Origin: Candidatus Woesearchaeota archaeon
GTDB lineage: Archaea; Nanobdellota; Nanobdellia; Woesearchaeales; UBA10216
Length of the DNA: 64,000 nucleotides
NCBI GenBank assembly: GCA_016192905.1
Contig: JACPTG010000004.1
Span: 173,734-237,733, forward strand
Direction of reading: 5' to 3'
Part shown: positions 1 to 64,000 of the stretch, piece after piece
Layout: each line of letters starts with the position of its first letter
How positions within the stretch are numbered: the stretch's first letter is position 1
Made by a program: the position numbers and the translations under genes
Notes under the pieces: model-generated
The model's input: only the letters and a program-made list of their open reading frames with translations
The model's database searches: none
Told to the model about the DNA's origin: nothing

Positions 1-592
1 GTCTTTCATTCAGGCCAATCCTGCAAAAATTGTATAAGATTTCCCTTCCATGCTCAGTCATTATTGACTCAGGATGGAACTGGACTCCGAAAATCGGGTA
101 GGACTTATGCTGGAGCCCCATAATTGCCCTGTCGTCCCTGCTGCGGGCAGTAATGGCAAGACAGTCAGGAAATGACTCCTCATCGGCAACAAGGGAGTGG
201 TATCTCATCACCCTGATATTGTTCCTGATTCCCCTGAAAATCCCCTTTCCTGAGTGCGTGATAAGGCTTGTTTTTCCGTGCATCGGCTTGCGGGCCCTTA
301 CCACCTTCCCGCCAAAAGCAGAAACTATGCCCTGATGGCCAAGGCAGACGCCCAATACAGGAATACTCCTGCCCAGCTTTGAAATAACCTCTGCGCATAC
401 CCCAAAATCACTTTTATTTTTGGGATTCCCTGGCCCTGGAGAAATAATTATCAGCCTGTAATTCCTTTCTTTAATCCTGCCAAGCGAAAGCGCATTGTTC
501 CTGACCACGTCAACATCCAGCCCAAACTCAGCCAGCATCTGGTACAAATTGTAAACAAACGAGTCAAAGTTGTCAATCAGCAGCGCCTTCAT
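1..592 (-). CDS. trpG: anthranilate synthase component II / glutamine amidotransferase (3' end truncated by window edge)
   Basis: Hand translation from rc ATG at 592: [25 protein letters not shown]...GVCLGHQG...FHPESIMTEHGREIL. This is the class-I GATase triad region. The frame stays open to position 2. The track ORF 180..398 is in a different frame. Confidence 0.85.
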   Translation of the reverse strand, partial: MKALLIDNFDSFVYNLYQMLAEFGLDVDVVRNNALSLGRIKERNYRLIIISPGPGNPKNKSDFGVCAEVISKLGRSIPVLGVCLGHQGIVSAFGGKVVRARKPMHGKTSLITHSGKGIFRGIRNNIRVMRYHSLVADEESFPDCLAITARSRDDRAIMGLQHKSYPIFGVQFHPESIMTEHGREILYNFCRIGLNER

Positions 593-1941: not shown

Positions 1942-2159
1942 CAGGCCTGCCTCCTGAAATAAAGCTTCCTTCTCAGGTCAGAAGGAACTGGCTCCTCTGC
2001 AAGAAGCCCGGCCTGCAGGAGCAGCTTCAGGGAACACTTGATGCCCCGCCTGGAAAGCCTGGTTTTTTCCGCAATGAAGCCCTGCGTTAAACCAGCTTCA
2101 TAAGATAAAAATACTTCAAGAATCCTAAGGCAGGAACGATTCAGGCCACCGGCAACCAA
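1941..2159 (-). CDS. small winged-HTH protein (putative regulator), TTG start
   Basis: 72 aa. The segment RSCLRILEVFLSYEAGLTQGFIAEKTRLSRRGIKCSLKLLLQAGLL matches the helix-turn-helix pattern of MarR/ArsR/Lrp N-domains. The stop and the trpE ATG overlap as TGATG. No ATG start, and the RBS is weak. Confidence 0.4.
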   Translation of the reverse strand: MVAGGLNRSCLRILEVFLSYEAGLTQGFIAEKTRLSRRGIKCSLKLLLQAGLLAEEPVPSDLRRKLYFRRQA

Positions 2160-2293
2160 CTCTTGAAACTTCTGGAGTGGAATCTAACTTAGAAACTAAA
2201 GCCTGCCTTCCAAAGGCAACCACCACTCAACGTCGCATTCATAGAAATACAGAATGGCAGGCTTGCTTAAATACCTTTTGGTAGGGGCAAAAT

Positions 2294-2557
2294 TCAGCCC
2301 CTGACATAAAGGAATTCTGTGTTCCTTAGCGGATCTCTCAACAAAATAGCTTCCTCCCTGCCCTCAGCACGGCCATAAAAAGTTGTTGCAGTCACACCTG
2401 ACGGAAGCCCGATTTCCCTCATATAAAAAGGCAAACCATTTGCCCGGTCAAGTGTTGCAAGAAGCGCACGCTGCTCCCCCTCTTCCCTGCCCGTCACCCT
2501 AACATAGGGAGGCTGGAAAGCCCCTAAAAACCTGTCAAACCCGTTAAAATCAGCCAT
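2294..2557 (-). CDS. small protein, paralog 1 of a tandem triplet (unknown function)
   Basis: 87 aa, MADFNGFDRFLGAF… It is preceded by TTGGAGGTAGATTGAAATGGCTGA, the same RBS and start context as the next two ORFs. A G/C hairpin lies downstream. Confidence 0.5.
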   Translation of the reverse strand: MADFNGFDRFLGAFQPPYVRVTGREEGEQRALLATLDRANGLPFYMREIGLPSGVTATTFYGRAEGREEAILLRDPLRNTEFLYVRG

Positions 2558-2583
2558 TTCAATCTACCTCCAATCAGCTAAAC

Positions 2584-2832
2584 TCAGCATTTCAGCAAAT
2601 AATTCCTCACATAGAGGGCTTCACCAACAGCCACAGCGTAGACATCCTGGCCAGCATAAACAACGGCGCTCCTCGCGGCGTCCGGGCCAATGCCCTCCAG
2701 TCCAGTGGCTCCCAAAAGGCCTTCAGGCAATCCTACCGACTCTTCAAGCCTCATGTCATGCTCTACAAGTTTTAGCAGAGATTCAGCGCCCCAACCGCTG
2801 GCCTTAAAAAAACCTTCCATACTATCAGCCAT
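2584..2832 (-). CDS. small protein, paralog 2 of the tandem triplet
   Basis: 82 aa, MADSMEGFFKASGWGA…LL.L…GLPEGL. Shares the MAD..GF..G.A and LL..L…GLP.G pattern with paralog 1. Upstream context is the identical TTGGAGGTAGATTGGAATGGCTGA. Confidence 0.5.
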   Translation of the reverse strand: MADSMEGFFKASGWGAESLLKLVEHDMRLEESVGLPEGLLGATGLEGIGPDAARSAVVYAGQDVYAVAVGEALYVRNYLLKC

Positions 2833-2934
2833 TCCAATCTACCTCCAAATCATATTTTGTAATTGTTATCAGAGCGAACATACAGCGACCTTTGCTGCCC
2901 GCCATCCATGTAAGTCTCAGTAAACAGCAGAGCT

Positions 2935-3102
2935 TCAGGGACACCGTACGTCATTGAAAAAGGCTGTTGCAGAAGTTGCAACTCCAGGACGCTTGTCAGC
3001 AACAAGCGCCACTGCACCTCTATACTCCCTGCCCATATACAAATCCAGCAGCGCTTGCAAATCGCCGTCAGCTGCCCTCACATATCCCCTGATGTCATCC
3101 AT
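2935..3102 (-). CDS. small protein, paralog 3 of the tandem triplet (55 aa, below the ORF-track cutoff)
   Basis: Hand translation: MDDIRGYVRAADGDLQALLDLYMGREYRGAVALVADKRPGVATSATAFFNDVRCP*. Upstream TTGGAGGTAGGTTGAAATGGATGA matches the other two. The LLxLYMxxEY segment resembles LLATLDRANGLPFYMREIG of paralog 1. Confidence 0.45.
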   Translation of the reverse strand: MDDIRGYVRAADGDLQALLDLYMGREYRGAVALVADKRPGVATSATAFFNDVRCP

Positions 3103-3339
3103 TTCAACCTACCTCCAATACTTCTTTATCCTCACATCTGAAAGGTCAAATGACTCTGAGACTGCACCTGAAGTTACCAGATTCTTCAGGCTATACTTGA
3201 CTGAACGAACAGAAAGGCCGGTAGCCAGAACAATTTCCCTTTGCGTAACTGGACTTGAACCAATAACCCTGAAAACCTTATTGCAAGACCTAGAAGACGA
3301 GTTGCCTATGACAAAGGTAATCGCCTTTTGACATAAAAA

Positions 3340-3362
3340 GAAAAGCAGAGCCTGAAATTTAA
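3340..3362 (-). promoter_or_regulatory. BRE/TATA promoter (GCAAAGTATTTAAA on the minus strand) driving the small-ORF/trp block
   Basis: rc reads gcatagcaaagtatttaaatttcag, about 240 nt upstream of paralog 3. The same 14-mer occurs upstream of the gene at 46760..47038. Confidence 0.4.
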
Positions 3363-3401
3363 ATACTTTGCTATGCGTGCAATATTGCCTTGGCGCCGCT
3401 T

Positions 3402-3478
3402 AGGTCGAGTAGCCTGCGCCTGCAGTGAAAGGGCGAATGCTCGACAGGCAGCTATCAGATAGAACCCTTTCACTGCCT
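3402..3478 (-). terminator. two adjacent stem-loops overlapping the tktC stop (putative terminator/RNA structure)
   Basis: GCAGTGAAAGGG(…31 nt…)CCCTTTCACTGC is a 12-bp stem. Next to it is GGCGC(…)GCGCC. Both sit just before the internal promoter. Confidence 0.35.
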
Positions 3479-4411
3479 CAGCGCCTTCTTTCCAACAGCC
3501 CTCTTGACCGCAGCTGCAATGTGACCCGGGCTCAATCCGTATTTCTCGTAAAGCTCCCCTGGCTTGCCTGACTCTGCGAAAACATCCTTAACGCCAACCT
3601 TCTGGACAGGGATAAGACTATCGTTCTCATTAAGAACATCTTGGACAGCAGAGCCAAGGCCTCCTATTATGCTGTGGTCCTCTGAAGTGACAACCGCCCT
3701 GGTTTTTGAGGCGTATTCAAGAACAAGGCTTTTGTCTATTGGCTTTATGGAGGAAATGTTAACAACAGCAGCCCTTATGCCTTCCTTCTCCAACTGCTCT
3801 GCAGCCTTAAGCGACTCAGAAACCATTGTGCCGCATGCAAAAATTACAGCGTCTGCACCCTCACGCACAACATAACCCCTGCCAATCTCAAAATTATGGG
3901 AATCATCATAAAGCGCTGGAACAGGAGCGCGGGACATCCTCATGTAAGCAGGCCCAATATGCCTGTAAAGAGCCTCAACTGCCTTTTCAGTCTGAACAGA
4001 ATCAGCAGGGACAAGCACAACCATGCCTGGAAGGGCCCTCATAGTTGCAATGTCAGTAATCTCCTGCGCTGTAGGGCCGTCCTCGCCTGTGGCAAGCCCT
4101 GCATGGCTGCCTACAAGCTTCACGTTCAATTTTGAATAACACACTGATACAAAAATCTGGTCATAAGCGTTCCTTGTAAGGAAGCACGCAAAGCTGGACG
4201 CAAAGGGCTTTTTTCCGCAGGTGGCAAGGCCTGCCCCAGTGCAGACCATGTCAGCCTCTGCAATGCCCATAGTGAAGAAACGGTCAGGGTATTTTTCGCC
4301 GAACTGGAGGCTCCTGGTTGAATCCTGCAAATCTGCGTCAAGCACAACAACGTCCCTGTCATCAGCAATCTTCAGCAAACCCCTGCCATAGCCATCCCTG
4401 GAAGCTTCCAC
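3470..4411 (-). CDS. transketolase, C-terminal (pyrimidine-binding) subunit
   Basis: 313 aa. …FTMGIAEADMVCTGAGLA…VGSHAGLATGEDGPTAQ… This is the split archaeal-type tkt. Confidence 0.9.
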   Translation of the reverse strand: MEASRDGYGRGLLKIADDRDVVVLDADLQDSTRSLQFGEKYPDRFFTMGIAEADMVCTGAGLATCGKKPFASSFACFLTRNAYDQIFVSVCYSKLNVKLVGSHAGLATGEDGPTAQEITDIATMRALPGMVVLVPADSVQTEKAVEALYRHIGPAYMRMSRAPVPALYDDSHNFEIGRGYVVREGADAVIFACGTMVSESLKAAEQLEKEGIRAAVVNISSIKPIDKSLVLEYASKTRAVVTSEDHSIIGGLGSAVQDVLNENDSLIPVQKVGVKDVFAESGKPGELYEKYGLSPGHIAAAVKRAVGKKALRQ

Positions 4412-5269
4412 CTACATCGCCTCCACTTCAGCCAGCGCCTGCCTCAGCTGCTCAGCGTTTGGAGCCTTCCCATGCCATGAGGAAACATTCTCCATGAAGG
4501 AAACGCCCTTGCCCTTGACTGTCCGGGCGATGACAACCTTCGGCCTGCCCCTGATTGTCAATGCCAGGTCAAAAGCGTTGCAAAGCTCCTGCACATCGTG
4601 ACCATCCACCTCGGACGTATGCCATCCGAAGGCTGCAAACTTCTCAGCAACAGGCTCAATCCGCATCAGCTTCTCAGTCGGGCCGTTCTGCTGCAGGCCA
4701 TTCCTGTCTACGATGGCTATTACATTATCAAGCCTGTAATGGGCAGCTGACCTTGCAGCCTCCCATACCTGGCCCTCCTGAAGCTCGCCGTCACCCATTA
4801 CCACATAAACATCGTATGGCTTTCCATCAAGCTTTCCTGCCAGGGCCATTCCATTGCCAACAGACAAGCCCTGGCCAAGGCTTCCAGTGCAGACATCAAT
4901 TCCCGGAGTGTAGATGCTGGAGTGGCCCTGAAGCCTGCTGTTCAGCTGCCTGTAGGTTTTGAGATCTTCCTTTGGGAAAAATCCAGCCTCTGCCATTGCC
5001 GCATATAATGCAGGTGTTGCATGCCCTTTGCTCATGACAAAACGGTCCCTGTCAGGCCACTTAGGATTCTTGGCATCAAACTTCATCTGACGGAAGAATA
5101 ATACGGAAAGAATTTCAGCAGCAGACAAAGAGCCGCCAGGATGGCCAGAGCCAGCCCTGTTGGCCATTAAAAGACTTTGCAGCCGGATTTCCTTTGCAAA
5201 CGCCCTGAGCTCTTCCGGAGTCCTCATATTTACAGGCAGGTCCATGGGTGAGTAAATAAAGTTTGTCAA
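4412..5269 (-). CDS. transketolase, N-terminal (TPP-binding) subunit
   Basis: 285 aa. GHPGGSLS…SKGHATPALYA…VVMGDGELQEG…DRNGLQ. Directly adjacent to the C-terminal subunit. Confidence 0.9.
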   Translation of the reverse strand: MTNFIYSPMDLPVNMRTPEELRAFAKEIRLQSLLMANRAGSGHPGGSLSAAEILSVLFFRQMKFDAKNPKWPDRDRFVMSKGHATPALYAAMAEAGFFPKEDLKTYRQLNSRLQGHSSIYTPGIDVCTGSLGQGLSVGNGMALAGKLDGKPYDVYVVMGDGELQEGQVWEAARSAAHYRLDNVIAIVDRNGLQQNGPTEKLMRIEPVAEKFAAFGWHTSEVDGHDVQELCNAFDLALTIRGRPKVVIARTVKGKGVSFMENVSSWHGKAPNAEQLRQALAEVEAM

Positions 5270-6090
5270 AAATCCTTTCCTTTTGGATAGGAGCCTAAAA
5301 TCTTCATGAACAACGCGTTTTTCCTCAGCTCAGCAATTGCATTCTTTACCTTTCCATCTTTAAGAGAGCCCTCAAAATCAAGGTAAAACATGTATTCCCA
5401 CTTTTTCCCTTTCATTGGCCTTGAAACGAGCTTTGTCAGGTTAATGTTGTTTTCCGCAAGTCCCCTCAGGCTGCAGTACAAAGAGCCGGGGGTGTGCTTT
5501 ACACTGAATACCACTGAGGTCTTTAATTCCCTGCTGCCCGCAACTCCCTGCTCCCTTGCCACAACAAAGAAGCGTGTTGTGTTGCCACTGTCAGTCTCTA
5601 TCCGCTTTCTTAGCATCTTCATGCCGTATATCTCTGCCGCCAGCTCACTCGCAACAGCAGCCTCCTCCTTATTCCCCCTTTCCTTTACTATCCTAACAGC
5701 GCCTGCCGTGTCATATTCCTCAATCCTCTGAATACTGTTCCTGTCCAGGAATTCCTGGCTCTGGACGAGGGCCTGTGGATGGGAATACGCCCTCCTGATA
5801 TCTTTCAGGCCAGAGCCCTTCTGCCCAATCAGGCAGTGGTGCACAGGAAGGTATTCCTCACCACAGACCACGAGGTTTTTTTCAAGGAGCAGGTCATAGT
5901 TCTCATTCACGTCTCCAGCAGTGCTGTTCTCCACAGGCACCATTCCGTAAGCTGCGTGACTTCTTTCCACCCTCTCAAAAAGCTCCCTGAAAGTCCTGCA
6001 GGGGGAAGTTTGCACTTTCCTGCCGAAATGGTTGAAGGCTGCAAGCTCGCTGTATGCGCCGTGCTCGCCCTGGAATGCAACGTCATCCAT
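5266..6090 (-). CDS. pheA: prephenate dehydratase with C-terminal ACT domain
   Basis: PDT motifs present: AYSELAAFNHF, TRF. ACT tail present: VVFSVKHTPGSLYCSLRGLAENNINLTKL. Start taken at the internal Met (MDDVAFQGEHGAYSE), just after the tyrA stop. The track start at 6129 would overlap tyrA by 47 nt. Confidence 0.82.
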   Translation of the reverse strand: MDDVAFQGEHGAYSELAAFNHFGRKVQTSPCRTFRELFERVERSHAAYGMVPVENSTAGDVNENYDLLLEKNLVVCGEEYLPVHHCLIGQKGSGLKDIRRAYSHPQALVQSQEFLDRNSIQRIEEYDTAGAVRIVKERGNKEEAAVASELAAEIYGMKMLRKRIETDSGNTTRFFVVAREQGVAGSRELKTSVVFSVKHTPGSLYCSLRGLAENNINLTKLVSRPMKGKKWEYMFYLDFEGSLKDGKVKNAIAELRKNALFMKILGSYPKGKDF

Positions 6091-6787
6091 TTTTGCCTGC
6101 CAGTTCCATAATCCTTTTTCCAAAGCCAATCAGTGCAGGCCTTGCAAACCTGTTATAGCGAAGCATGTCCAAAAACAGCTGGTAAGAGTCACTCTCAACC
6201 CTCTCCTTAATGCCTGCCATGAGTTCAGAATTCATGGTTTTTATCTCCGGCGCGCCAGAAGGAAACGACCGGCCAATTGCATGGATAAGAGCAAGCGAAA
6301 AGGCAGCCTGCCGGTCATGCTCCTCAGGCGTGGTTTCCATTACCCTGAGCCCGAGCCCGGCCATGAAATCCTTAACCTTCTTAAGCCTTGCCTGGCTTAT
6401 CCTTACAGGGCATAAAACTATTCTCCTGCTCCCAGGCCTGCTGTAGCTGTCAGGCCCGAACAATGGGTGAGTGGAAATCAAATCAGCCTGAGGCAGCCCC
6501 TTGCGCAATACACCAGCAGGATATTCCTTTACAGAGCACACGTCCATAACAAGGGCTCCTTTCCTGACATGGGGCCTTATCTGCCTGACAGCATCCTCAA
6601 GAGAGGATGCGTGGACACACAGCAATACGATGTCAGACGCTGCTGCTTCCTCTAATGTGGCTGTGCATTCTTCACGCTTCAAGTCATAGACTAATGTCCT
6701 GAAGTGCCGGCTCAGCAGCCTTTCAGCCAGCCTTCCAAACCTTCCACGCCCGATTATTCCAAGGCTTTTCTTAGCTGCCTTAACCAT
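6083..6787 (-). CDS. tyrA: prephenate dehydrogenase
   Basis: 234 aa. N-terminal Rossmann motif (LGIIGRGRFG); STHPLFGP; PDH domain. Confidence 0.82.
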   Translation of the reverse strand: MVKAAKKSLGIIGRGRFGRLAERLLSRHFRTLVYDLKREECTATLEEAAASDIVLLCVHASSLEDAVRQIRPHVRKGALVMDVCSVKEYPAGVLRKGLPQADLISTHPLFGPDSYSRPGSRRIVLCPVRISQARLKKVKDFMAGLGLRVMETTPEEHDRQAAFSLALIHAIGRSFPSGAPEIKTMNSELMAGIKERVESDSYQLFLDMLRYNRFARPALIGFGKRIMELAGKNG

Positions 6788-7835
6788 ACGCCCTCTGCCT
6801 GAGAAGATGGTCTACCAGAACAAGGGCAACCATTGCCTCAACCACAGGAACCGCCCTTGGACAGAGGCACGGGTCAAACCTTCCCTCTGCCTTCAGCTTT
6901 TCCTCCCTTCCTGCCCTGCTTATTGTCTGCTGCTCCTTAGCTATTGATGAAGTGGGCTTTACTGCGGCCCTTACGATTATGTCCTGGCCGCTTGAAATCC
7001 CTCCAAGAATCCCTCCTGCGTGGTTTGTGGAGAATCCTGATTTTTTTATCGCATCGTTTGCCTCTGAGCCCTTCATCTCAGCAAGCCTGAACCCGTCACC
7101 AATCTCAATACCCTTAACCGCGCCTATGCTCATAACTGCCTTTGCAAGGTCTGCACTCAGCTTGTCAAAGGTCGGCTCGCCAAGGCCTGCGGGAACTCCT
7201 TTTGCAACAACCTCAACTATGCCTCCGACTGAATCGCCTTCTGCTTTTGCAGCCAGAATAAGCTTTTCCATCTCCAACGCCTTTTTCCTGTGGGCAGCCC
7301 TTACAGGGTTCTTCTCTGTCTCGCTGTAGTCTATCTCGCTGTCCTCCAGCCTTATCCTGCCCACCTGCCTTGTGAAACCAATAACACTTATACCTTCCTT
7401 TTCCAGGACTTTCTTTGCGATTGCAGCTGCCGCCACGCGGCCTACCTGCTCCCTTGCCGAGCTCCTTCCGCCACCCCTCCAGTCCCTTATGCCATATTTC
7501 TTTTCGTAAGTGTAGTCAGCGTGCCCTGGCCTGTACAGCTCCCTGAACTTCTCGTATTTGGCCGAGTCTATATCCTCATTCATCACCATTATGGATATAG
7601 GGGCTCCTGTAGTACGGCCTTCGAAAACTCCTGACATTATAATGGCCTTGTCCGCCTCTTTCCTTGGAGTCGTGACTGCACTCTGGCCAGGCCTTCTCCT
7701 GTCAAGGTCTTTCTGAATGTCCTCTTCACTTACTTCCAAGTTTGGCGGGCAGCCATCTATGACAACACCCACGCCTTTCCCATGAGACTCGCCCCATGTT
7801 GATATCCTGAACATCCTTCCGAAAGTGCTGGTCAT
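6780..7835 (-). CDS. aroC: chorismate synthase
   Basis: 351 aa. FGRMFRISTWGESHG…GRSSARE… are canonical AroC motifs. Confidence 0.92.
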   Translation of the reverse strand: MTSTFGRMFRISTWGESHGKGVGVVIDGCPPNLEVSEEDIQKDLDRRRPGQSAVTTPRKEADKAIIMSGVFEGRTTGAPISIMVMNEDIDSAKYEKFRELYRPGHADYTYEKKYGIRDWRGGGRSSAREQVGRVAAAAIAKKVLEKEGISVIGFTRQVGRIRLEDSEIDYSETEKNPVRAAHRKKALEMEKLILAAKAEGDSVGGIVEVVAKGVPAGLGEPTFDKLSADLAKAVMSIGAVKGIEIGDGFRLAEMKGSEANDAIKKSGFSTNHAGGILGGISSGQDIIVRAAVKPTSSIAKEQQTISRAGREEKLKAEGRFDPCLCPRAVPVVEAMVALVLVDHLLRQRAYG

Positions 7836-8350
7836 TGTTTCACCCTTGCGTGCTTTAAAAAGCCGAGTATAATCCGCGCAGCCTCCTGAGGGCTTGCTTC
7901 TGAAGTGTCAATAACCACATCCGCAATCCCAAAGTATCTCTTCTCCCTTTTCCTCAAAACCTGCCTTATCTCAGCAACCGCGCCCTTCCCGGTAATGGAC
8001 GGCCTGCCACTGCCAGCTATCCTTGAGGCAATCACTTCACTGTCAGCAGTCAGGAGAATAACCAGATTTTTTTTCCGGTCAAACCTTATCCTGCTTTCTG
8101 TAAATGCGCCGCCTCCGGTCGCAACCACAGCGCGACCTGACCTCAGGGCAGCCCTTACCGCCACTCTTTCCAGAGACCTCAGCCTTTTCCACCCTGATTT
8201 GGCCACCAGCTCAGGAATGGTCATTTTTGCAAGCCTCTCAACCTCATCATCAGTGTCAATGAACCTGGATTTAAGCTTTCTTGAAAGAATTTTCCCAACC
8301 GCAGTCTTGCCAACACCCCGGTATCCTGTAAGAACTATGTTCATCAGCAA
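7832..8350 (-). CDS. aroK: shikimate kinase, bacterial P-loop (AroK/AroL) type
   Basis: 172 aa. Walker A (LTGYRGVGKTAVGKIL), ATGGG, and an AroK-like layout. It is not a GHMP-family kinase. Confidence 0.82.
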   Translation of the reverse strand: MLMNIVLTGYRGVGKTAVGKILSRKLKSRFIDTDDEVERLAKMTIPELVAKSGWKRLRSLERVAVRAALRSGRAVVATGGGAFTESRIRFDRKKNLVILLTADSEVIASRIAGSGRPSITGKGAVAEIRQVLRKREKRYFGIADVVIDTSEASPQEAARIILGFLKHARVKQ

Positions 8351-16226: not shown

Positions 16227-16323
16227 AAGGCAGCATACGCCCCGAATCCGCCCGGGGCTATCACTCTTGTCCTGCCGATAGCCATCATTAAGAGCGGTTT
16301 GTGGCTTTTTTCCTGGCGAGCAG

Positions 16324-20397: not shown

Positions 20398-20486
20398 CCA
20401 GACTGGAAGGGGAATCTTTGTTTATAAATGTGTCTGGATTGCCAATAGAAACAATTAAATTACACCCAAAGAAACTGCACTAATAT

Positions 20487-20573
20487 ACGGCAGTGGTCAA
20501 ACGGCATGACAGGAGCTTCCCAAGGCAATGCTGCAAAAAGCTTCTAGTCCGGGTTCAATTCCCGGCTGCCGTA
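20487..20573 (+). tRNA. tRNA-Gly(CCC) with 16-nt intron at canonical position 37/38
   Basis: Acceptor ACGGCAG/CTGCCGT with discriminator A. D-arm GTCA…TGAC. Anticodon stem GGAGC/GCTTC, loop TTCCCAA. T-arm CCGGG-TTCAATT-CCCGG. The intron is AGGCAATGCTGCAAAA. A TATA (tttataaatg) lies upstream. Confidence 0.7.
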
Positions 20574-20634
20574 TGAAACTTGTCCCTTCCCGGCCTTGGG
20601 TTACCTTTAAATCCTCCAAAAGATTACCTGCCTT

Positions 20635-30786: not shown

Positions 30787-31410
30787 TTACGCATGCGCCC
30801 GCTTGATGTGCTTGAGCCTTGCGAAGTTCTCCCTCTCCATCTCCTCAAGCCTGAGCCTTACGTAGGAAGCTGATGCCTCAAGCCTTGGAATGGTGATTTT
30901 CTCAAGCGCATTAACCTTCCTCTTGGTCTTCTCAATCTCCTGCAGCAGCCTCCTCAATGCGGTTTCGTGCTCTGCCGCCTCCAGAACCTTCTCAACAAGC
31001 TTCTCGTAGGCAAGCGCTGCCTCGTCAATCTTAATAGAGCCGGAAAGGTAGCCAAAGCCCCTGGTGAAAATGCGCTTCTGCACAGCGCCCTTCTTTATGC
31101 TGGGCACCAGAACGCCCATCACGTTCTTGGCCTCAAGCTGGATAACCGGCTTGTCCTTAACAGCCAGCGCTACAGACTTAACAGCCAAATCAGAGTCAAG
31201 CGCCCTGGTGATATTCATCTTCCCAAGCGCATGCCTGTACTCCTCCACAAGCTCAGAGCGAACATTCCTGGCCTTTTCAAGTGCCTTGAAGAACTCAATA
31301 ATAAGGCCGTCACGCTTCTTCTTAAGCATGCTATGGCCAGACCTTGCCAGCTTAATCTTCTTCCTGAGAAGAAGCAGCTCGCTTCTATTTGGAGTTACGT
31401 TCTGGGACAT
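30787..31410 (-). CDS. atpD: A1AO (V-type) ATP synthase subunit D
   Basis: 207 aa. Coiled-coil subunit with the pattern typical of subunit D (…[25 protein letters not shown]…). Confidence 0.9.
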
Positions 31411-34357
31411 TCTTGTAGTACTTCTTCCTCAGCTCAGGGCTTATCCTGACAAGCTCAGCCTCAGGCAGGGCTCCCAAAAGAGCCCAAGCAACCCTAAGCG
31501 TATCCTCCTGGACAGACCTGTTCTCATTCCTGGCCTGCCTGACGAACACGTCCTCAAAGGAGGCTGCGAACTTCAAAAGGCGGCGGTCCCTCTCAGCAAG
31601 CGACTCCTCGCCGACAATAGCAGCCAGGCCCCTGAGGTCGCGGCCCTCAGCATAGGCTGCGTACAGCTGGTCTGAAACCTGCTTGTGGTCCTCCCTTGTC
31701 TTGCCCTGGCCGATGCCAAGGTTCATCAGCCTTGACAGGGATGGCAAAACATCAATCGGAGGGTAAATGTTCTTCCGGTGAAGCTCCCTGCTCAGGACAA
31801 TCTGGCCCTCGGTAATGTACCCTGTCAGGTCAGGAATCGGATGGGTGATGTCATCACCAATCATGGTCAAAATCGGAATCTGCGTAACAGAGCCCTTCTT
31901 TCCCTTGACAATCCCGGCCCGTTCATACAGCGAAGCGAGGTCAGTGTACATATAGCCGGGGTAGCCCCTCCTCCCGGGAATCTCCTCCCTGGCCGCGCCA
32001 ATCTCACGAAGTGATTCACAATTTGATATTATTAAGCCATTTCCAACCAAGAATTTTCCTGTTTCTGGAATGGTGACATCAAAAACAAACAAGTCTTTTG
32101 GTTCAGTTACTTTAATGTCTGTGATTTCGTCCAAAATGAATTCATCATTTGCATGTTTCTTTAACTCTTTCAGGATTTCATCATTTTCTGCAACGAGTTG
32201 AGAGAACTTTTCCATGCATTTTACAAGTTGCACTTTACTAATTCTCTTAAAGCCCCGTTCAACTTCAGACAACTGGCCGTTACTGGAAATTTGAGTTTGT
32301 TTTATTCCATATTTATGCCTCAATGCCCTTATTAATGTTCCGCAAACTCTCGGCGCATATTCAAATTCAGCGCTCTCTAAAGCATTATCCTTTACCTTCT
32401 CTAATTTATGTCTTTTATGCGGGTGTGATGCGCCAACTTTTTCAACAAACAAGTTAACATACCTTTTGCCTCTTATGATTATGTCAAACACATTACTCTC
32501 TCCATAAGTGCCTGTAGAGTGCCTATCAACAATGATAGAAGCTATTCCAAGTCTCCTTAAAAGCTGTTGGAGCCTTTTGATAACTTTTTCATTCACAGAA
32601 GTATATTGAATGACCCTTCTATTGACAATGCAGCTGCCATCGCCATCAAAGTAGCCTCTCAAAAATGCAGAAATCAAGTTTTCAGGCAATGAGAACAATT
32701 TCTTAAATTCCTTATCTTTCAAACCAAAGAAAGTTGCTATGTCGCAGTAAGCCTTATTATTAATTCTGCATATACTTACTCCATCTTGACTCTTGAAATC
32801 TGTAATCTGGATGTTGGGGAAAATTGTTGTAATCTTTTTCTTGTATATTTTTCTCAAATCAGAACTTGTATTTGAGAAATCCACGCGATAGATGTGGCTA
32901 TTCTCATTTCTTATCAATGAGCCATCAGAAGCAACTAGCCCTAGCAAGTAAAGTAAGTCGTCGTTTGCGTATGCCGTCGCTATTTTCAATCTATTGCCGC
33001 CAACATGCGATATGGCTGAAATTGCCTTCTCTATTGGCAACTCAGGACATATTTTAATCAATGCTCGAATCTCTTTAACATTCAAGAAACTTTCAGAATC
33101 TGTTAGCCTTGAATAATTAATGCCCGATTCTTTACATGCTTCCTTCAGTGAACCATACAGTTTTTTCAGTTTTTGTTTGCTGGTTTCCCTGACTAACTTA
33201 TCAAAGAAAACAATTGTGTTTTCATTTAATGCATCTATTATGGAAGGAATAGCCGTATTCACATTTATTTTTGATGTAATTGCGACTCTATCACCTTTCT
33301 TTAATTGGCCTGCAGGCGCCATTCTTAGTCCAAGAATCGTGTCTGTCAGTATCCTATGATTTGGCGTCAAGGTTAATTTGTTTCCTGAGCGAGTTGATAG
33401 TTCTATCATTTGCATTGAAGCTGGAAGCTTTTGAACTCGGGCAATCTGTTTAATGGCATCATTATTACCGTCCCATGTTAGCGCTTTTTCTTCCTTATCC
33501 CTAATATCAACATCAGAACCTCTTGTTTGACTTTCAACAAATTCTTTAATTGTTGTTATTCTTCCATCACCTAAAAACATCTCAGTTTCTCCAGCGACGC
33601 AGTAGTTCGTCATATCAGTCAATATTACCAGCACATGCATGTCCTTCTCATACGCAAAATACTCTGCTGCTGTAAGCGCCATTCTTGGAGTTATAAGCCT
33701 CTCCACAGCAGGGTCATCTGCCAGGTTGAGGAATACGAGAGACCTCTTAAGCGCGCCAGTGTTCTCGAAATCAGTAATAAAGCGCTGCGCTTCCTCATTG
33801 GTAATGCCCATTGCGGCAAAGATGACGACAAAGCCAGCCTCTTTGCCCAGAACCCTTGCCTGCCTTGCAATCTGAAGGGCAATGTCGTTGTGCGGCAGGC
33901 CAGAGCCTGAGAAAACAGGCAGCTTCTGCCCCCTGACAAGCGTATTCATCAGGTCAATGGTTGAAATACCTGTCTGGATGAAGTCCTCAGGGCCTGCCCT
34001 GGCCACCGGGTTAATGGCAGCCCCGGTAATGTCAAGCTTATCCTCAGGAATAATTTCAGGGCCGTTGTCAATGGGCTTTCCAGCGCCGCTAAGAATCCTT
34101 CCAAGCATGTCCGGGGAAACAGGCAGCCTGATGTTTTCGCCAAGGAACCTTACGCGGGCATCCCTGTCCAGGCCAGAAGTGCCCTCGAAAACCTGGACTA
34201 CGACTATATCATCACTTGTATCAAGAACCTGGCCTGTCTTTAATTCACCTGAAGGCGTGGCAATCCTTACCAGGTCATTATAGCCAACAGGGTCTGTCTT
34301 CCTTACAAAGACAAGCGGGCCTGCAATCCGTGAAACAGTCTTATACTCCTTTTCCAT
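31385..34357 (-). CDS. atpB: A1AO (V-type) ATP synthase subunit B, interrupted by an intein
   Basis: The N-extein ends …ILTDMTNY. The C-extein begins [36 protein letters not shown]. The exteins sum to ~464 aa. Start taken at MEKEYKTV. Confidence 0.9.
32021..33601 (-). mobile_element. intein in ATP synthase subunit B with LAGLIDADG endonuclease domain (527 aa)
   Basis: Starts [22 protein letters not shown] blocks [14 protein letters not shown] and [11 protein letters not shown]. Ends [11 protein letters not shown] with +1 Cys. In frame. Confidence 0.85.
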
Positions 34358-36074
34358 CCCTAAACTCCCTCTCCATGTCAGCCACAATCCCCTTGAGGAA
34401 TGGCTCGTAATCCTTCTCAAACTTCACATCGCCAATCCTGTCCTTTGCCTTAATCTCCAGAATCCTCTGCGCCTTCCCGCCTGATTCAAGGGCAGCGTAC
34501 GCAAGGTCAGCATACTTCAGGACAGTCTTCATTATGAGATAGGTTTTCTTAGGCTGCGAATACGTGTCAACAGGGTGGAATGCGTTCTGCTGCAGCAGGA
34601 ACTCACGGGCCATCCTCGCTATCCTCAGCGTAATCCGCTCACGCTCAGGCAGGGCATCAGAGCCAATAAGCTGGACAATCTCAAGCAGCCTGTCCTCCTC
34701 CTGAAGCACGGCCATAAGCCTGTCAACACAATTTCTCCAATCAGCAGCAACGTTCTTCGCAAACCAGGGCTCAAGGATGTCTGCGTACAGCGAGTAGGAA
34801 GTAAGCCAGTTTATTGAAGGGAAATGCCTGCGCTGGGAGAGCTTTGCATCCAAAGCCCAGAATACCTTAACAACCCTAAGGGTGCTTTGAGTTACAGGTT
34901 CTGAAAAATCCCCGCCTGGCGGCGAAACAGCGCCTATGACAGAAACAGAGCCTTCCTTTCCAGACAGCGCGACAACCCTGCCAGCCCTTTCGTAAAACTC
35001 CGCAAGCCTTGTTGAAAGGTATGAAGGGTAGCCCTCCTCACCAGGCATCTCCTGAAGCCTTGAAGAGATTTCCCTCATGGCCTCAGCCCACCTTGAAGTT
35101 GAGTCAGCCATAAGGGCAACGCTATAACCCATGTCCCTGTAATACTCAGCGATTGTAACTCCTGTGTAAATTGAAGCCTCCCTGGCGGCAACAGGCATGT
35201 TTGAAGTGTTCGCGATAAGCACAGTCCTGTTCATAAGCGGCTTATCAGTCCGCGGGTCAACCAGCTTAGGGAACTCCTCCAAGACCTCAGTCATCTCATT
35301 GCCCCGCTCGCCGCAGCCTACATAGACTACGACTTCTGCATCGGCCCACTTGGCCAAGGCCTGCTGAGTCACCGTTTTTCCCGACCCGAATGGCCCCGGG
35401 ATAGCAGCCACTCCTCCCTTGGAAAGCGGAAACAGCGCATCAAAAACCCTCTGGCCGGTAATCAGGGGAAGGTTGGGAATAAGCTTTTTAGAGGAAGGCC
35501 TGGGTCTCCTCACAGGCCACTGCTGCATAAGCGTAATTTTCGCGCCATTCTCCAAAGTGCAAACCTCGTCCTCAACGGTGAACGAGCCCTCTCTGATATC
35601 CTTCGCCTTTCCTGCGGAAATGTCTGCAGGGGCAGGGAACCTGTGTTCTGTGTTAAGCTCCTGGACAGTCCCGATAATCATTCCCGGAGAAACCAAATCG
35701 CCTTTTTTTACAGCAGGCTTAAACTCCCACTTCTTCCTGCGGTCCAAGCCAGGGGCAGTGATGCCGCGGGATATGAAATCTCCACGCTGCCTCCTAAGCT
35801 CTGCAAGCGGCCTCTGGATGCCATCATAAACAGAGTTAAGAAGCCCGGGGCCAAGCTCAACAGAAAGCGGAAGGCCTGTAGTCTCAACAACCTCGCCAGG
35901 CTTCAGGCCTGAAGTGTCCTCATAAACCTGGATTGTCGTGCGGTCATCATTAATCTGGATAACCTCACCCATAAGCTTCTCCCTGCCCACGCGAACAACG
36001 TCGTACATCCTGGCGCTGAGCCCCTTCGCAACGACCACAGGGCCTGAAATCTGGTAAAGCCTTGCCATTTTCAA
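34341..36074 (-). CDS. atpA: A1AO (V-type) ATP synthase catalytic subunit A (no intein)
   Basis: 577 aa. GPFGSGKT Walker A; …[22 protein letters not shown]…. Confidence 0.92.
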
Positions 36075-40299: not shown

Positions 40300-40656
40300 A
40301 AAAGTGCGGGGGCAAGAATAAGCCACCTTCTGTCATGCCCGATGGCAGCACAGGCTGCCGATGGCACGCCTCAACATTCGACTAAGCGTCAAAGACTTGC
40401 ACCGGCCAGGACTCGCCGTTTCACCGTATCCCAGGGGAAATGTCTGCAGGTTAACTCTCCCATATCCTCGCGGAGGGATTCTCAGCATCATCCTAACCCA
40501 TGGGCCGTGCCGTTTCTGAGCGGTTGCCTTCCCTTTCAGGAACTCCCTGACAGGAGTGGCCATGTTTCAGCTCGCCTTTGCACAAGGCTCGCGTCGGTGG
40601 GTGGACTTTCCTCAGCGAAAAAACCGCCGGAGTCAAGCTCCTGCCCCGCACAACAC
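40300..40656 (-). ncRNA. rnpB: RNase P RNA (archaeal type A)
   Basis: On the minus strand: CR-I GAGGAAAGUCCACC. CR-V ACAGAAGGUGGCUUA, giving a P4 helix with a bulged U. GGUGAAACGGCG. P1 pairing GUGCGGGGCA/UGCCCCCGCAC. TATA (ttttaaat) about 27 nt upstream. No credible ORF. Confidence 0.7.
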
Positions 40657-61140: not shown

Positions 61141-61257
61141 TCCCTGATGGAACTATAAAAAACTTTGCCTGCGGTAATGCGGACATGGCCAAATTCAGAA
61201 TCCGCCCGGGGCCACTTTTTCACAAACTTTATATACTTGTTATAACACGTAATTACT

Positions 61258-61455
61258 ATGGGGCTTATTTTGACCCTTCATGCGAAAGAGCAGATGGTCG
61301 AAAGGGGAGTAAGCAGGCAGCAGGTCATTGATACGATAAAGAAAGGGTCAAAAGTTGTTCAGACTGACGGGTTTTTAGCCTCTTATAGCTACATAAAGGT
61401 AGCATACAAGATGAGAGGTGATAAATTCATTGTAAAAACGGTGATGCTAAGATGA
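61258..61455 (+). CDS. DUF4258-family putative toxin
   Basis: 65 aa. LTLHAKEQMVERGVSRQQVIDTIKKG matches the DUF4258 consensus (HAxEQMxERGIS). Confidence 0.55.
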   Translation: MGLILTLHAKEQMVERGVSRQQVIDTIKKGSKVVQTDGFLASYSYIKVAYKMRGDKFIVKTVMLR

Positions 61456-61787
61456 GCGAAAAATGCTATATTTGTGAAAAAGGCGAACTTCTAAAGAAGA
61501 AAGTAGATGTCAAGCCTTATGGTGTTTCAATCGGAAAGTTTGATGCCCAAGTTTGCACTGAATGCAACGAAACGTTCTTTAGCGAGCAAACATCAGATAA
61601 GATAGATGAAGTTGCAAAAATCAAAGGGCTGTGGGGACTTGAAGCCCGAACCAAGATAGGCCAGGTCGGAAATTCGATTGATGTTAAGATAAGCAAGAAA
61701 ATTGCTGAATTTGCAGGCCTCAAGAAAGGAGGAGAAGTCAGAGTTTATCCCGAAGGGAAAAACAGGATAATAATTGAGTCTGCTTGA
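61452..61787 (+). CDS. putative antitoxin: N-terminal Zn ribbon (YgiT/MqsA-like) + C-terminal AbrB/SpoVT-like domain
   Basis: CYICEKG…CTECNE and VKISKKIAEFAGLKKGGEVRVYPEGKNRIIIE. Overlaps the upstream ORF by 4 nt. Confidence 0.55.
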   Translation: MSEKCYICEKGELLKKKVDVKPYGVSIGKFDAQVCTECNETFFSEQTSDKIDEVAKIKGLWGLEARTKIGQVGNSIDVKISKKIAEFAGLKKGGEVRVYPEGKNRIIIESA

Positions 61788-61805
61788 AAAAGAAATCGCC
61801 CCGAC

Positions 61806-61846
61806 TTTTAACAAAAACATCCATAGTCCGCCCAAGGCTACTTTTT
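61806..61846. repeat. 40-nt intergenic repeat, copy A (TTTTAACAAAAACATCCATAGTCCGCCCAAGGCTACTTTT)
   Basis: Identical 40/40 to 63111..63150 and about 31/40 to 63903..63945. Each copy begins 6-15 nt after a stop codon. Confidence 0.6.
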
Positions 61847-62212
61847 GCTTTTTTTCCCATCCTCAGCCCAATGAATCATGGGATGAAGCGCTCGCATCAG
61901 TTTCTTTCCATTTTTGGTTAAAGAATATTCAACTCTTGGCGGCATTTCATTAAATGAATGCCTTTGGACTATTCTCTCAGCTTCTAATTCCCGCAAGCGT
62001 TCTGTCAAAATCTTGGCTGTTGCTTTTTCAAGCCTGTCCTTAAGCTCGTTAAACCTTAGTATTCCAAAGTTTCCAATGGTAATTATAATTGATATAGACC
62101 ATTTTTTGCTTAGGAAATCAGAAGCCTCTTCAAGAGGCCTGGGACAGTAGCCCTTTAAAGACTTCATTTTACAACACTTAGTATCAATTTGGATAGTTTT
62201 GTTAGTTTCCAT
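61838..62212 (-). CDS. HxlR-type winged-helix transcriptional regulator
   Basis: 124 aa. CPRPLEEASDFLSKKWSISIIITIGNFGILRFNELKDRL…ILTERLRELEAERIV matches the HxlR family. Confidence 0.72.
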   Translation of the reverse strand: METNKTIQIDTKCCKMKSLKGYCPRPLEEASDFLSKKWSISIIITIGNFGILRFNELKDRLEKATAKILTERLRELEAERIVQRHSFNEMPPRVEYSLTKNGKKLMRALHPMIHWAEDGKKSKK

Positions 62213-62292
62213 TTTTAAACTCCTAAATTTAAATAGTAGCTTACTTTATTTGTTATACTAAGTAGATTATTTAAACTTTGTGAGGTGGAACG

Positions 62293-62427
62293 TATGGAGA
62301 AGAGAAAACCCTGCTGCTCAGGAGGCATATGCCCTGCTTGTGAATGCTGCATATGCATTTGCACGAAGGAGTTAAAGAAAATACTCTCGCCGGAAGTGAG
62401 AAAATTGCTACTAAAGGAAATTGATTA
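62293..62427 (+). CDS. Cys-rich 44-aa peptide (8 Cys)
   Basis: MEKRKPCCSGGICPACECCICICTKELKKILSPEVRKLLLKEID*. SD GAGGTGG upstream. Divergent from hxlR. Confidence 0.4.
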
Positions 62428-62458
62428 AGGCAAATAAATTGATGATGAGTGGAAATCT

Positions 62459-62962
62459 ATGCTAAAAGTAATGTATACTGTCTTATCTAACAGGAAATAT
62501 TTAGCAATAGCTATATTTTCCACAATATCATTAATGATTTTATACATCATTTCATTATCTTCTGTGGTTTTAAAATCATTCGATATAATTACTGATACTG
62601 CGATGCTCAGTTCTATTTTCTCTGGCGGTTTGTTACAACTTATTTTAATTGGCGTACTTACAATATTATTTGGCATCTGGTTAGCGATGCAGCTTTATCT
62701 GCGATGGGAAAATAAGGAAATGAAGGCAACTCCAATTGCTGCAGCGAGCGGAAGCGTATTCAGTGGCTTCTTGGGAGGGTTGGGCGCACTTGGGGGATGT
62801 CCTGCTTGCCTCGTTATCATTACAGCGGTTATAGGCAGTACAGCAACCGCATTCCTACTTCAGTACAGGACACCAATTGTGCTGTTAGCAATAGCATTAA
62901 GTGTCCTGTCTATTTATATTACATCAAAATCCATAGAGAATAAATGCGGGTGGTGCAAATGA
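62459..62962 (+). CDS. membrane protein with intramembrane Cys pair (GGCPACL) and C-terminal CGWCK
   Basis: 167 aa, about 4 TM. Confidence 0.5.
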   Translation: MLKVMYTVLSNRKYLAIAIFSTISLMILYIISLSSVVLKSFDIITDTAMLSSIFSGGLLQLILIGVLTILFGIWLAMQLYLRWENKEMKATPIAAASGSVFSGFLGGLGALGGCPACLVIITAVIGSTATAFLLQYRTPIVLLAIALSVLSIYITSKSIENKCGWCK

Positions 62963-63093
62963 CAAAATCTTTTATCTGCCCCGAATGTAATTTTTCCTAT
63001 AGGGGAAAAAAGTGGGCAGAAAAATGCGAAAAGTGGTGCAAGGAGCACAATAGCTGTAATATTGAAATTACAAAACACGCTATTCAAACATGA
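62959..63093 (+). CDS. 44-aa Zn-ribbon-like mini-protein
   Basis: MTKSFICPECNFSYRGKKWAEKCEKWCKEHNSCNIEITKHAIQT*. Its ATGA overlaps the upstream gene. Confidence 0.4.
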   Translation: MTKSFICPECNFSYRGKKWAEKCEKWCKEHNSCNIEITKHAIQT

Positions 63094-63110
63094 TTTTAGT
63101 TAGCCCTTAT

Positions 63111-63150
63111 TTTTAACAAAAACATCCATAGTCCGCCCAAGGCTACTTTT
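63111..63150. repeat. 40-nt intergenic repeat, copy B
   Basis: Identical to copy A. Directly follows the Zn-ribbon mini-ORF stop. Confidence 0.6.
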
Positions 63151-63158
63151 CTATATCT

Positions 63159-63431
63159 TTATTGCTTGCTGATGAACTCCATTATTTCTTTTTTCATTTT
63201 TGGATTTAACGAGACGTGGAGTTCTCCAGTTGATTTTTTGGCAAGAAGCCAACTATCATTAATCAGCTCTTTTATGGCGTTGTCAATCAATTTTTGACCT
63301 TCCTTTGTTGATGTAAAATTGGAAGGGAAACCTTTTTTCAGATTTCTTACATCAGTATGCTTGCCTCCCCATCTAGGAGGAGTTATAAGTCCATCAAGAA
63401 TTATCCTTTTTACAACTTTAGCATCATGCAT
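63159..63431 (-). CDS. hypothetical small protein
   Basis: 90 aa. No diagnostic motif. Lies in the AT-rich island. Confidence 0.4.
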   Translation of the reverse strand: MHDAKVVKRIILDGLITPPRWGGKHTDVRNLKKGFPSNFTSTKEGQKLIDNAIKELINDSWLLAKKSTGELHVSLNPKMKKEIMEFISKQ

Positions 63432-63546
63432 GTTTCAAATCGCCATACACCCCTTAATAACGCTTTCTTCTATAATGATATGATATGATATTAAAACAAA
63501 AGATTTAAATATGCATGGATGTAGCTATAGCCATATATGAAAAGGG

Positions 63547-63891
63547 ATGAACAAAATGGAACAACCGATATTCATTAAAGCGCTTGGTGACACACCGAAG
63601 ATAAGGATTTTGAACTACTTAATAAAGTACCGTGGGTTGGACTACTCGATGTCGGATATTGCCAGGAACAGCAATGTTGGCTGGGCAACTCTTAGCAGGT
63701 TATGGAAAGAATTTGTAGGATTGAAGATAATGACTGCTACAAGAGAAGTAGGAAAGGCGAAACTGTTCAAGTTAAATGAGAAAAATGAAGCAGTCATGAA
63801 GCTTATAGAAGTATACAATAAACTGTTAGAACAAGAAACAGAAGACTATTTTGCCAAAAATACAACAACAGTTAAGTCTACTGTAGAATAA
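63547..63891 (+). CDS. winged-helix DNA-binding protein
   Basis: 114 aa. KIRILNYLIKYRGLDYSMSDIARNSNVGWATLSRLWKEFVGLKIM is HTH-like. Confidence 0.55.
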   Translation: MNKMEQPIFIKALGDTPKIRILNYLIKYRGLDYSMSDIARNSNVGWATLSRLWKEFVGLKIMTATREVGKAKLFKLNEKNEAVMKLIEVYNKLLEQETEDYFAKNTTTVKSTVE

Positions 63892-63902
63892 GAAAAGCCC
63901 CG

Positions 63903-63945
63903 CTTTTTAACAGAAACATTAAGTGTCCGCCCGGGGCTACTCTTT
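63903..63945. repeat. 40-nt intergenic repeat, diverged copy C
   Basis: CTTTTTAACAGAAACATTAAGTGTCCGCCCGGGGCTACTCTTT. The flank GCCCCG…CGGGGC can form a hairpin. Follows the stop of the wHTH gene. Confidence 0.5.
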
Positions 63946-64000
63946 AAATTACCCTAATCTTTATATCTCCTTTGTCCACTACCCAGTGCTTCCGAAGCCG

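Follow-up and report, generated by a model that had tools for sequence, protein, structure and literature searches.

DPANN archaea have tiny genomes, and the ways in which they gain and lose accessory genes are little understood. The described systems closest to the one presented here are integrons and elements that target tRNA genes. Archaeal integrons use canonical attC sites (Ghaly et al. 2022, PMC9668308), and the formation of cis-mobilizable elements (CIMEs) combined with tandem accretion is a route known from streptococci (PMC5704250). We analyzed a stretch of 64,000 nucleotides of contig JACPTG010000004.1 from a Candidatus Woesearchaeota archaeon, referred to as the window, which carries near its end an AT-rich island with several copies of a short repeat. 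The core of this repeat is the 3' end of tRNA-Gln genes, and the island is probably an integrase-less array of three small gene cassettes, each ending in a shared attP-like site and stacked by a recombinase encoded elsewhere.

The island extends from 61141 to 63978 (2838 bp, unstranded, GC content 0.377) between the start of a 2-hydroxyacid dehydrogenase gene and the stop of a dUTPase gene, and was delimited by its composition and by relatives in which these flanks are adjacent. An earlier note on this DNA had described a drop in base composition after the dehydrogenase gene and suggested a comparison of GC content and codon usage with the flanks. The drop was confirmed: the last three 1-kb bins of the window have GC contents of 0.42, 0.37, and 0.36 as compared to about 0.50 over 61 kb, and windows of the same size elsewhere have a mean GC content of 0.500 (standard deviation 0.019, minimum 0.43), corresponding to a z value of -6.3 for the island. 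The tetranucleotide distance of the island gave a z value of 10.4, and the GC content at third codon positions was 0.31-0.49 for island genes as compared to 0.50-0.62 for other genes. From position 63121 onward, Logan contig L001 (SRR12113428) has the same sequence as the window, beyond which it extends by 2.2 kb. With this contig included, the GC content returned to about 0.51 right after the last repeat; therefore, the end of the island falls inside the window. The 3' end of the dUTPase gene forms the last 22 nt of the window, and the genes beyond the island on L001 encode dUTPase, NrdR, and cobalamin adenosyltransferase.

The closest available relatives of the flanking dehydrogenase, 70-72% identical to it, are encoded on three long contigs (L017, L018, and L019). 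Wider synteny is kept in all three and comprises the genes for cobalamin adenosyltransferase, NrdR, dUTPase, dehydrogenase, and a protein of about 520 amino acids. Here, dUTPase and dehydrogenase genes are separated by 42, 154, or 240 nt, and the site is empty, with no island gene and no repeat copy between them. The 2.8-kb stretch is a real insertion. Its horizontal acquisition, as proposed in the earlier note, is strongly supported by its deviant composition, by the empty sites of the three syntenic relatives, and by the occurrence of these cassettes in other genomes. The note had named a normal composition together with syntenic homologues in the relatives as evidence that would speak against acquisition; neither was found. 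L019 differs from L017 and L018 by a 90-aa gene and a Fic gene inserted between NrdR and dUTPase genes, which is a second variable spot in this neighborhood.

Repeat finding and a nucleotide profile revealed three copies of the repeat of 48-57 nt and one partial copy in the island. A triple repeat had been mentioned before as a side remark; the three full copies were confirmed, the partial fourth copy had been overlooked, and the repeat proved to be the organizing feature of the island. A full repeat consists of an arm not derived from tRNA, which begins with (A)GCCCnn or GAATCCnnC and continues with CTTTTTAACAGAAAC and N7, plus a tRNA-derived core of 15 nt; two forms of the arm 5' end thus occur among site copies. 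The core, TCCGCCCGGGGCTA, is the 3' end of tRNA-Gln genes that are intact in related loci and corresponds, as GTCCGCCCGGGGCTA, to the 3' strand of the T-stem, the 3' strand of the acceptor stem, and the discriminator base. It is present at all four island junctions, all on the forward strand. At the left boundary site (61193-61220), the tRNA-Gln 3' end is represented by a copy that is both partial and degenerate, TTCAGAATCCGCCCGGGGCCAC, after which comes a T-run; P-arm and tRNA body are absent. Repeat copy 1 (61792-61848) consists of the P-arm CGCCCCGACTTTTAACAAAAACATCCATA and the core GTCCGCCCAAGGCTAC; copy 2 (63098-63153), also composed of P-arm and core, is 94% identical to copy 1; and copy 3 (63892-63947), which forms the right boundary, consists of AGCCCCGCTTTTTAACAGAAACATTAAGTG and the core TCCGCCCGGGGCTAC, with the GC content back to 0.5 directly after it. 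A 16-nt core pattern matched five times in the window, as compared to 0.05 matches expected.

The intact tRNA-Gln genes of the related loci L005, L007, and L012 have the sequence AGCCCCG...GGCGGTTCGAATCCGCCCGGGGCTA and end in ...GGCGGTTCGA(A/G)TCCGCCCGGGGCTA. Those of L005 and L007 carry a UUG anticodon and an intron (Rfam tRNA 51-52 bits), and that of L012 carries a CUG anticodon (Rfam tRNA 60 bits). In all three loci an AT-rich insert begins right after tRNA-Gln, and upon alignment with L012 the intact tRNA stands where the window has its left site 61193-61220. No tRNA was found at the window island; the sole tRNA gene of the window (20486-20574) is unrelated. The latter has an apparent intron, a four-base anticodon 'ccca' according to ARAGORN, an Rfam tRNA score of 49.6 bits, and a 3' end unrelated to the repeat core; a mechanically called open reading frame (ORF) of 206 codons overlaps it on the opposite strand. 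Split-tRNA half genes as in Nanoarchaeum were considered as an origin of the core and rejected, with only 15-21 nt of tRNA present and intact tRNA-Gln genes in the relatives.

The site can be written as TTTTAAC-N2-AAAC-N7-GTCCGCCC. Degenerate repeat patterns were scanned against species-representative genomes and JGI metagenomes. Eight further loci (one locus duplicating another) contained true copies, and one additional match (L008) was due to chance. L006 and L007 are derived from a metagenome-assembled genome labelled Methanosarcinales, a label that is unconfirmed. In viral contigs, neither a site copy nor relatives of two proteins described below, the antitoxin and the membrane protein, were found. 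Additionally, a solitary site was found in the window outside the island (16241-16263, forward strand), in which GCCCCG is followed by GAATCCGCCCGGGGCTA, 17 nt identical to the tRNA-Gln 3' end. This site forms a hairpin GCCCCG/GAATCCGCC/CGGGGCTA, is flanked by convergent genes in a region where the GC content is normal, and carries no cassette; it could represent a vacant secondary att site or the scar of an excision.

Cut at its repeats, the island yields three cassettes of 625, 1305, and 794 bp, each including its repeat, with cargo of a kind that is characteristic of accessory DNA. Cassette 1 (61221-61845) carries a toxin-antitoxin (TA) pair of the DUF4258 and YgiT-AbrB types, cassette 2 (61846-63150) an HxlR gene and a three-gene operon, and cassette 3 (63151-63944) genes for a 90-aa protein and a winged helix-turn-helix (wHTH) protein. 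All genes listed in the earlier note are present, and their family assignments hold wherever a family exists; the island had been taken there as one unit, in place of which the repeats delimit three independently mobile cassettes.

Cassettes of the same types are found in other genomes and in other arrangements. In L012, tRNA-Gln is followed by the TA cassette and a repeat, the TA cassette being the sole insert at that tRNA. L007 contains tRNA-Gln, five genes, a repeat, the TA cassette, a repeat, and a Fic gene. L005 (and likewise L011) shows the order tRNA-Gln, partial site, a cassette with genes for an 89-aa protein and a wHTH protein, repeat, and pyrD. In L002, the peptide-membrane-Zn-ribbon module of cassette 2 is followed by Fic and a repeat, after which the GC content increases from about 0.38 to 0.51. 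Two sites enclose a RelE-like pair in L006. When the TA cassette DNA of the window, L007, and L012 was aligned, the column identity was 87%. The homologous stretch is bounded precisely by the left and the right core. Beyond the left core, the three loci show host DNA (window), the arm of the previous cassette (L007), or the tRNA body (L012), and beyond the right core their sequences are unrelated. As judged from the aligned sequences, such boundaries are what site-specific recombination would be expected to produce if the crossover takes place in the core. Furthermore, L010 (ORJL010181405.1, positions 1-8276) is an AT-rich stretch of 8 kb in which three minus-strand repeats part AbiEi/AbiEii from a unit of LmuB and an SbcD-like nuclease (an LmuB/SbcCD-like gene pair); hence, this type of site also carries defense-system cassettes. 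Fic-domain genes lie beside the Cys-rich module or in cassette arrays in L002 (1513-2367), L003 (2505-3476), L007 (4674-5579), L015 (8542-9453), and L019 (4311-5231). L005 contains a GC-rich segment (about 0.53) of about 150 nt (2864-3011) between tRNA-Gln and the first partial site, which could be a small RNA or a remnant of an earlier element.

The array shares several features with integron arrays and with clusters of attC sites lacking integron-integrases (CALINs): small cassettes made of cargo and one 3'-end site recur in varying order from genome to genome, the cargo often consists of TA modules, and many arrays have no neighboring integrase. However, the site differs from attC in that it has neither the inverted R''/R' pair (RYYYAAC/GTTRRRY) nor a supported hairpin, and its core copies a tRNA 3' end. 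The cassettes described here have their own promoters with TATA-like boxes and genes on both strands, whereas integron cassettes are promoterless and co-oriented, and the natural target is a tRNA-Gln gene instead of an attI next to intI. Membership among attC sites and integrons was rejected: TTTTAAC is present, but no GTTRRRY was found downstream on either strand and no covariation was found in the stem. Regarding an IntI/attI/Pc platform, no Phage_integrase occurs among the Pfam matches listed for the window ORFs.

With tRNA-targeting elements and CIMEs (PMC5704250), the array has in common direct repeats of a tRNA 3' end at the junctions, tandem stacking, and att sites without an integrase; four sites delimit three units with no recombinase, and the site is empty in relatives. 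Integration downstream of a tRNA was seen in L005, L007, and L012 but not at the window array, which has neither an adjoining intact tRNA nor an integrase of its own. Unlike CIMEs, the units measure only 0.6-1.3 kb, represent single modules of two to four genes, and contain no backbone remnants. A further difference is the conserved arm of about 30 nt that cassettes with unrelated cargo have in common; it points to a dedicated cassette system rather than to random decay. We assign the array to tRNA-targeted site-specific integration with accretion and not to integrons. No description of such an integron-like tRNA-Gln arrangement for these archaea was found in the literature searched.

In the mechanism which we propose, the cassettes would be moved by a recombinase whose gene lies elsewhere and which is most likely a tyrosine integrase. 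This enzyme would recombine the site of about 50 nt either with a tRNA-Gln gene at its 3' end or with a site that already belongs to an array. Each event would create a left attL consisting of target, core, and a short T-rich P' arm, and a right attR consisting of P-arm and core; repeated events would stack cassettes in tandem. In this view, the window array is located ectopically, with the dehydrogenase gene on one side and the dUTPase gene on the other, and starts with only the degenerate tRNA 3'-end fragment TTCAGAATCCGCCCGGGGCCAC. Several findings weigh against this mechanism. Family scans revealed no recombinase among the eight island proteins, no integrase was present among the Pfam matches listed for the 62 other window ORFs, and the related islands examined contained no recombinase either. 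Circular or excised cassettes were not observed. The window array stands without an adjoining tRNA gene; the empty sites of L017 to L019, distant relatives with a GC content of about 0.40, have no recognizable attB. Apparently, the system is rare or the pattern too strict, with about 15 full-site copies in two very large collections.

Two other explanations of the array were considered. It could have arisen by decay of larger integrative elements (proviruses, plasmids, or elements resembling integrative and conjugative elements) that had repeatedly entered tRNA-Gln and afterwards lost integrase and backbone, the cassettes being leftovers and not mobility units. Tandem direct repeats of a tRNA 3' end without an integrase are a product of decay and accretion (PMC5704250), and degeneration is seen in some sites, such as L002 1437-1452 and L006 6663-6698. 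Decay nevertheless appears improbable when it is confronted with the same 0.6-kb TA cassette, which is precisely bounded by cores in three genomes and is all that was inserted at the L012 tRNA, with one conserved P-arm common to cassettes of unrelated cargo, and with the arrays themselves, in none of which remnants of a replication, capsid, or transfer backbone were seen.

Alternatively, the element of about 50 nt might mainly act in the transcript, as an acceptor-stem-like hairpin with a T-run serving as terminator or as 3' processing or stability signal. It would accompany accessory genes as they move, and the cassettes would be exchanged by homologous recombination between its copies. Every copy is located after a gene end and precedes a T-run, and a gene end at 16241 is likewise succeeded by a lone hairpin that contains this core. 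The 5' AGCCC of eight copies is able to pair with their 3' GGGCT, 82% of the cells being paired as compared to 18-61% with a slid partner. However, covariation was absent from this stem: no pair has changed on both sides and the observed values were not above those of the shuffles. The folding energy of the repeat copies was ordinary (z = -1.2 to -1.5), several copies starting with GAATCC do not possess the 5' strand, and no Rfam family was matched, only noise being obtained for the island at E ≤ 10. A structured hairpin or mini-tRNA acceptor stem is thus unsupported, although pairing is possible. Moreover, an initial insertion at a tRNA gene, where nothing but the 15-nt core is shared, cannot be explained by homologous recombination. 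We regard this explanation as very improbable.

Stacking of cassettes by a recombinase acting in trans remains our preferred reading. As a broader and more tentative proposal, Woesearchaeota may possess a dedicated cassette-capture system that resembles integrons in its working without being related to them. In this system, self-expressed cassettes of 0.6-1.3 kb carrying a tRNA-Gln-derived site of about 50 nt, among them a previously undescribed metal/redox module, would be shuffled between tRNA-Gln genes and secondary sites by a recombinase provided in trans. If this is true, cassettes defined by a site of about 50 nt would constitute a concrete and searchable mechanism of gene flow for DPANN archaea, and the integron principle of coupling cargo to a portable site would have been invented a second time, independently. 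TA, defense, and stress modules would be spread between genomes in this way, and the system would provide a means to catalogue such cargo. The short conserved site makes the question of the recombinase directly testable.

The largest cassette carries a Cys-rich operon, for which the gene order given in the earlier note was confirmed. The gene of the HxlR-family regulator (61838-62212, reverse strand; Pfam HxlR 87.9 bits as compared to a cutoff of 20.8, E = 4e-25) is divergent from three genes on the forward strand. The first (62294-62428) encodes a peptide of 44 aa with eight Cys residues (Cys8 peptide) in the arrangement CCx4Cx2CxCCxCxC, followed by a helix TKELKKILSPEVRKLLLKE. The second (62459-62962) encodes a membrane protein of 167 aa with four predicted transmembrane (TM) helices, a CPAC motif, and a C-terminal CGWCK, and the third (62959-63093) a Zn-ribbon protein of 44 aa (CPEC...CxxxC), which is linked to the membrane protein gene by an ATGA overlap. 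The stop codon of the HxlR gene (61838-61840) is a CTA inside the repeat core GGCTAC; hence, the cassette boundary runs into the end of the coding sequence. The T-run after the core encodes the Lys-rich C-terminus of HxlR.

The module of peptide, membrane protein, and Zn-ribbon is conserved in DPANN archaea and represents a Cys-rich system that had escaped annotation. The Cys8 peptide is encoded upstream of the membrane protein gene in all six other loci examined (L002, L003, L004, L014, L015, and L016), and a Zn-ribbon gene lies beside the module in five of them, the exception being L003. The regulator is either a divergent HxlR, found also in L003 and L016, or a co-directional ArsR. Gene finders almost never annotate the peptide gene; since such ORFs are rarely called, a homologue search with the 44-aa peptide gave one match only. 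The membrane protein family comprises 31 proteins, all at least 56% identical, and those members for which a source is named belong to Woesearchaeota or Pacearchaeota. C114-P-x-C117 in the third TM segment and C163-x-x-C166-K at the C-terminus are invariant in this family, and a wider family of four-TM proteins with 208 representatives has kept both CxxC motifs. In an AlphaFold2 model, the helices of the membrane protein are predicted at residues 12-43, 57-83, 93-135 (broken at CPAC), and 139-160; with a pLDDT of 58, the model was too poor for a fold search. Logan contigs retrieved with the membrane protein were only cassette-2 unitigs breaking at the repeats.

The earlier note had proposed for this operon a function in the handling of thiophilic metals, or possibly in redox reactions or peptide maturation. 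Handling of thiophilic metals or metalloids is plausible, though unproven, and is the function which we tentatively favor. Pfam MerE (PF05052) matched 21 of 29 family members at E ≤ 0.01, one of which (P0024) passed the gathering score with 25.5 as compared to 22.8 bits. An hhalign comparison with a Tn21 MerE sequence gave 43% identity over 40 columns around the Cys motif (E = 1e-4). Both the membrane protein and the mercury transport proteins MerE, MerF, and MerT have a Cys pair in a TM helix, which is CPAC here and CPC in MerE, and the second, C-terminal Cys pair is presumably arranged as in MerF. The neighborhood of L003 contains weakly MerT-like (E = 1e-3) and MerTP/MerP/CopZ-like proteins (E = 9e-9 to 3e-5), and that of L014 encodes ArsR, a multicopper oxidase, and ArsP. 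According to our reading of the positive-inside rule, the C-terminal Cys pair is probably cytoplasmic, and the Cys8 peptide has no signal sequence; this arrangement would fit a relay of the MerF/MerE type. A thiol-sensing regulator (HxlR here, ArsR elsewhere) would control the three genes, and metal would pass from the membrane Cys pair to the cytoplasmic Cys pair and on to the cytosolic Cys-rich peptide.

Other observations limit this support or speak against a metal function. The protein of the window remains below the MerE gathering score (18.3 as compared to 22.8 bits, E = 0.002), the similarity to MerE is limited to a single helix, and the 208 representatives of the wider four-TM family gave no MerE signal. 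With 167 aa and four TM helices, the protein differs from MerE, which has 78 aa and two TM helices. Neither merA, merR, nor merP is present in the cassette and no merA lies nearby; Cys8 peptides and Zn-ribbons are not components of mer systems, and the regulator of the module is HxlR or ArsR. A PDB sequence search gave nothing for the close family, and the top match of a broad profile, MerF, was not significant (E = 0.16). Finally, in P0104 (417 aa), a distant member of the four-TM family, a fifth predicted TM helix joins a DsbA/Thioredoxin_4 domain with a CPYC motif, and the wider family may hence be involved in thiol-disulfide exchange.

In a different view, the module would be a system for thiol-disulfide or redox stress (or stress by reactive electrophiles or persulfides) and not a metal system. 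The four-TM CxxC protein would then be a membrane oxidoreductase resembling DsbB, VKOR, or CcdA that acts on or with the Cys8 peptide, and HxlR and ArsR would be thiol redox sensors. The P0104 fusion and the conservation of both CxxC motifs in the wider family without a MerE signal agree with this, as do the resemblance of HxlR to the redox regulators RrpA and RrpB and the L015 locus, which encodes VKOR, thioredoxin, DsbD_TM, and glutaredoxin; the neighbors in L015 and the fusion fit thiol redox about as well as metal, and L015 also encodes a cupredoxin. We nevertheless consider a redox function rather unlikely in view of the MerE similarity in 21 of 29 close relatives and of the metal-type neighbors elsewhere, MerT/MerP-like proteins at one locus and multicopper oxidase and ArsP at another. 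Furthermore, following our topology reading, a peptide without a signal sequence would not meet an extracytoplasmic oxidase. Maturation of the peptide, including a ribosomally synthesized and post-translationally modified peptide, is unsupported because there is no conserved maturation enzyme; radical SAM genes are present in L004 but are not conserved in the other loci.

Cassette 1 carries the predicted TA module already recognized in the earlier note. Its body (61221-61791, forward strand) comprises its own TATA-like box TTTATATA at 61228-61235, the gene of a DUF4258 toxin (61258-61455, forward strand; 34.8 bits as compared to a cutoff of 25), and the gene of an antitoxin with a YgiT-type Zn finger and an AbrB-like part (61452-61787, forward strand; YgiT_finger 25.4 bits as compared to 20.2). 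The two genes overlap by the 4 nt ATGA (61452-61455). As in type II TA systems of the DUF4258 and YgiT/MqsA types, both proteins score above their family cutoffs and form a compact two-gene unit with a 4-nt overlap on mobile DNA. The predicted pair differs from MqsA in its antitoxin, which apparently has an AbrB/SpoVT-like C-terminal part instead of the helix-turn-helix of MqsA; residues 68-101 gave a match to an addiction-module antidote model that is below the cutoff (25.4 as compared to 55.9 bits). An exact database look-up of the antitoxin sequence returned no record.

In cassette 3, the gene of the 90-aa protein (63159-63431, reverse strand), for which no family match was obtained, is divergent from that of the wHTH protein of 114 aa (63547-63891, forward strand). 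The wHTH domain resembles Csa3 (PADLOC, E = 5e-7). Homologues of both proteins are encoded in the single cassette of L005, the 90-aa protein with 28% identity (E = 2e-11) and the wHTH protein with 29% identity (E = 3e-20), and this diverged pair sits there downstream of tRNA-Gln.

The window contains one other strong anomaly of base composition. Within the region 31385-34420, an AT dip at 32001-34000 has a GC content of 0.36-0.42 and is the most deviant tetranucleotide window outside the island. It lies in an ORF of 1011 aa, and Pfam matches of the ORF group include ATP-synt_ab, LAGLIDADG_3, and Intein_splicing. The dip is probably an intein with a homing endonuclease in a gene for a subunit of an A-type ATP synthase. 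The window is archaeal, as seen from its RNase P RNA of the archaeal type at 40309-40647. A second Intein_splicing match (E = 1e-18), apart from the ATP synthase intein, was obtained for the ORF group at 589-23652; hence, the window probably holds two intein-bearing genes.

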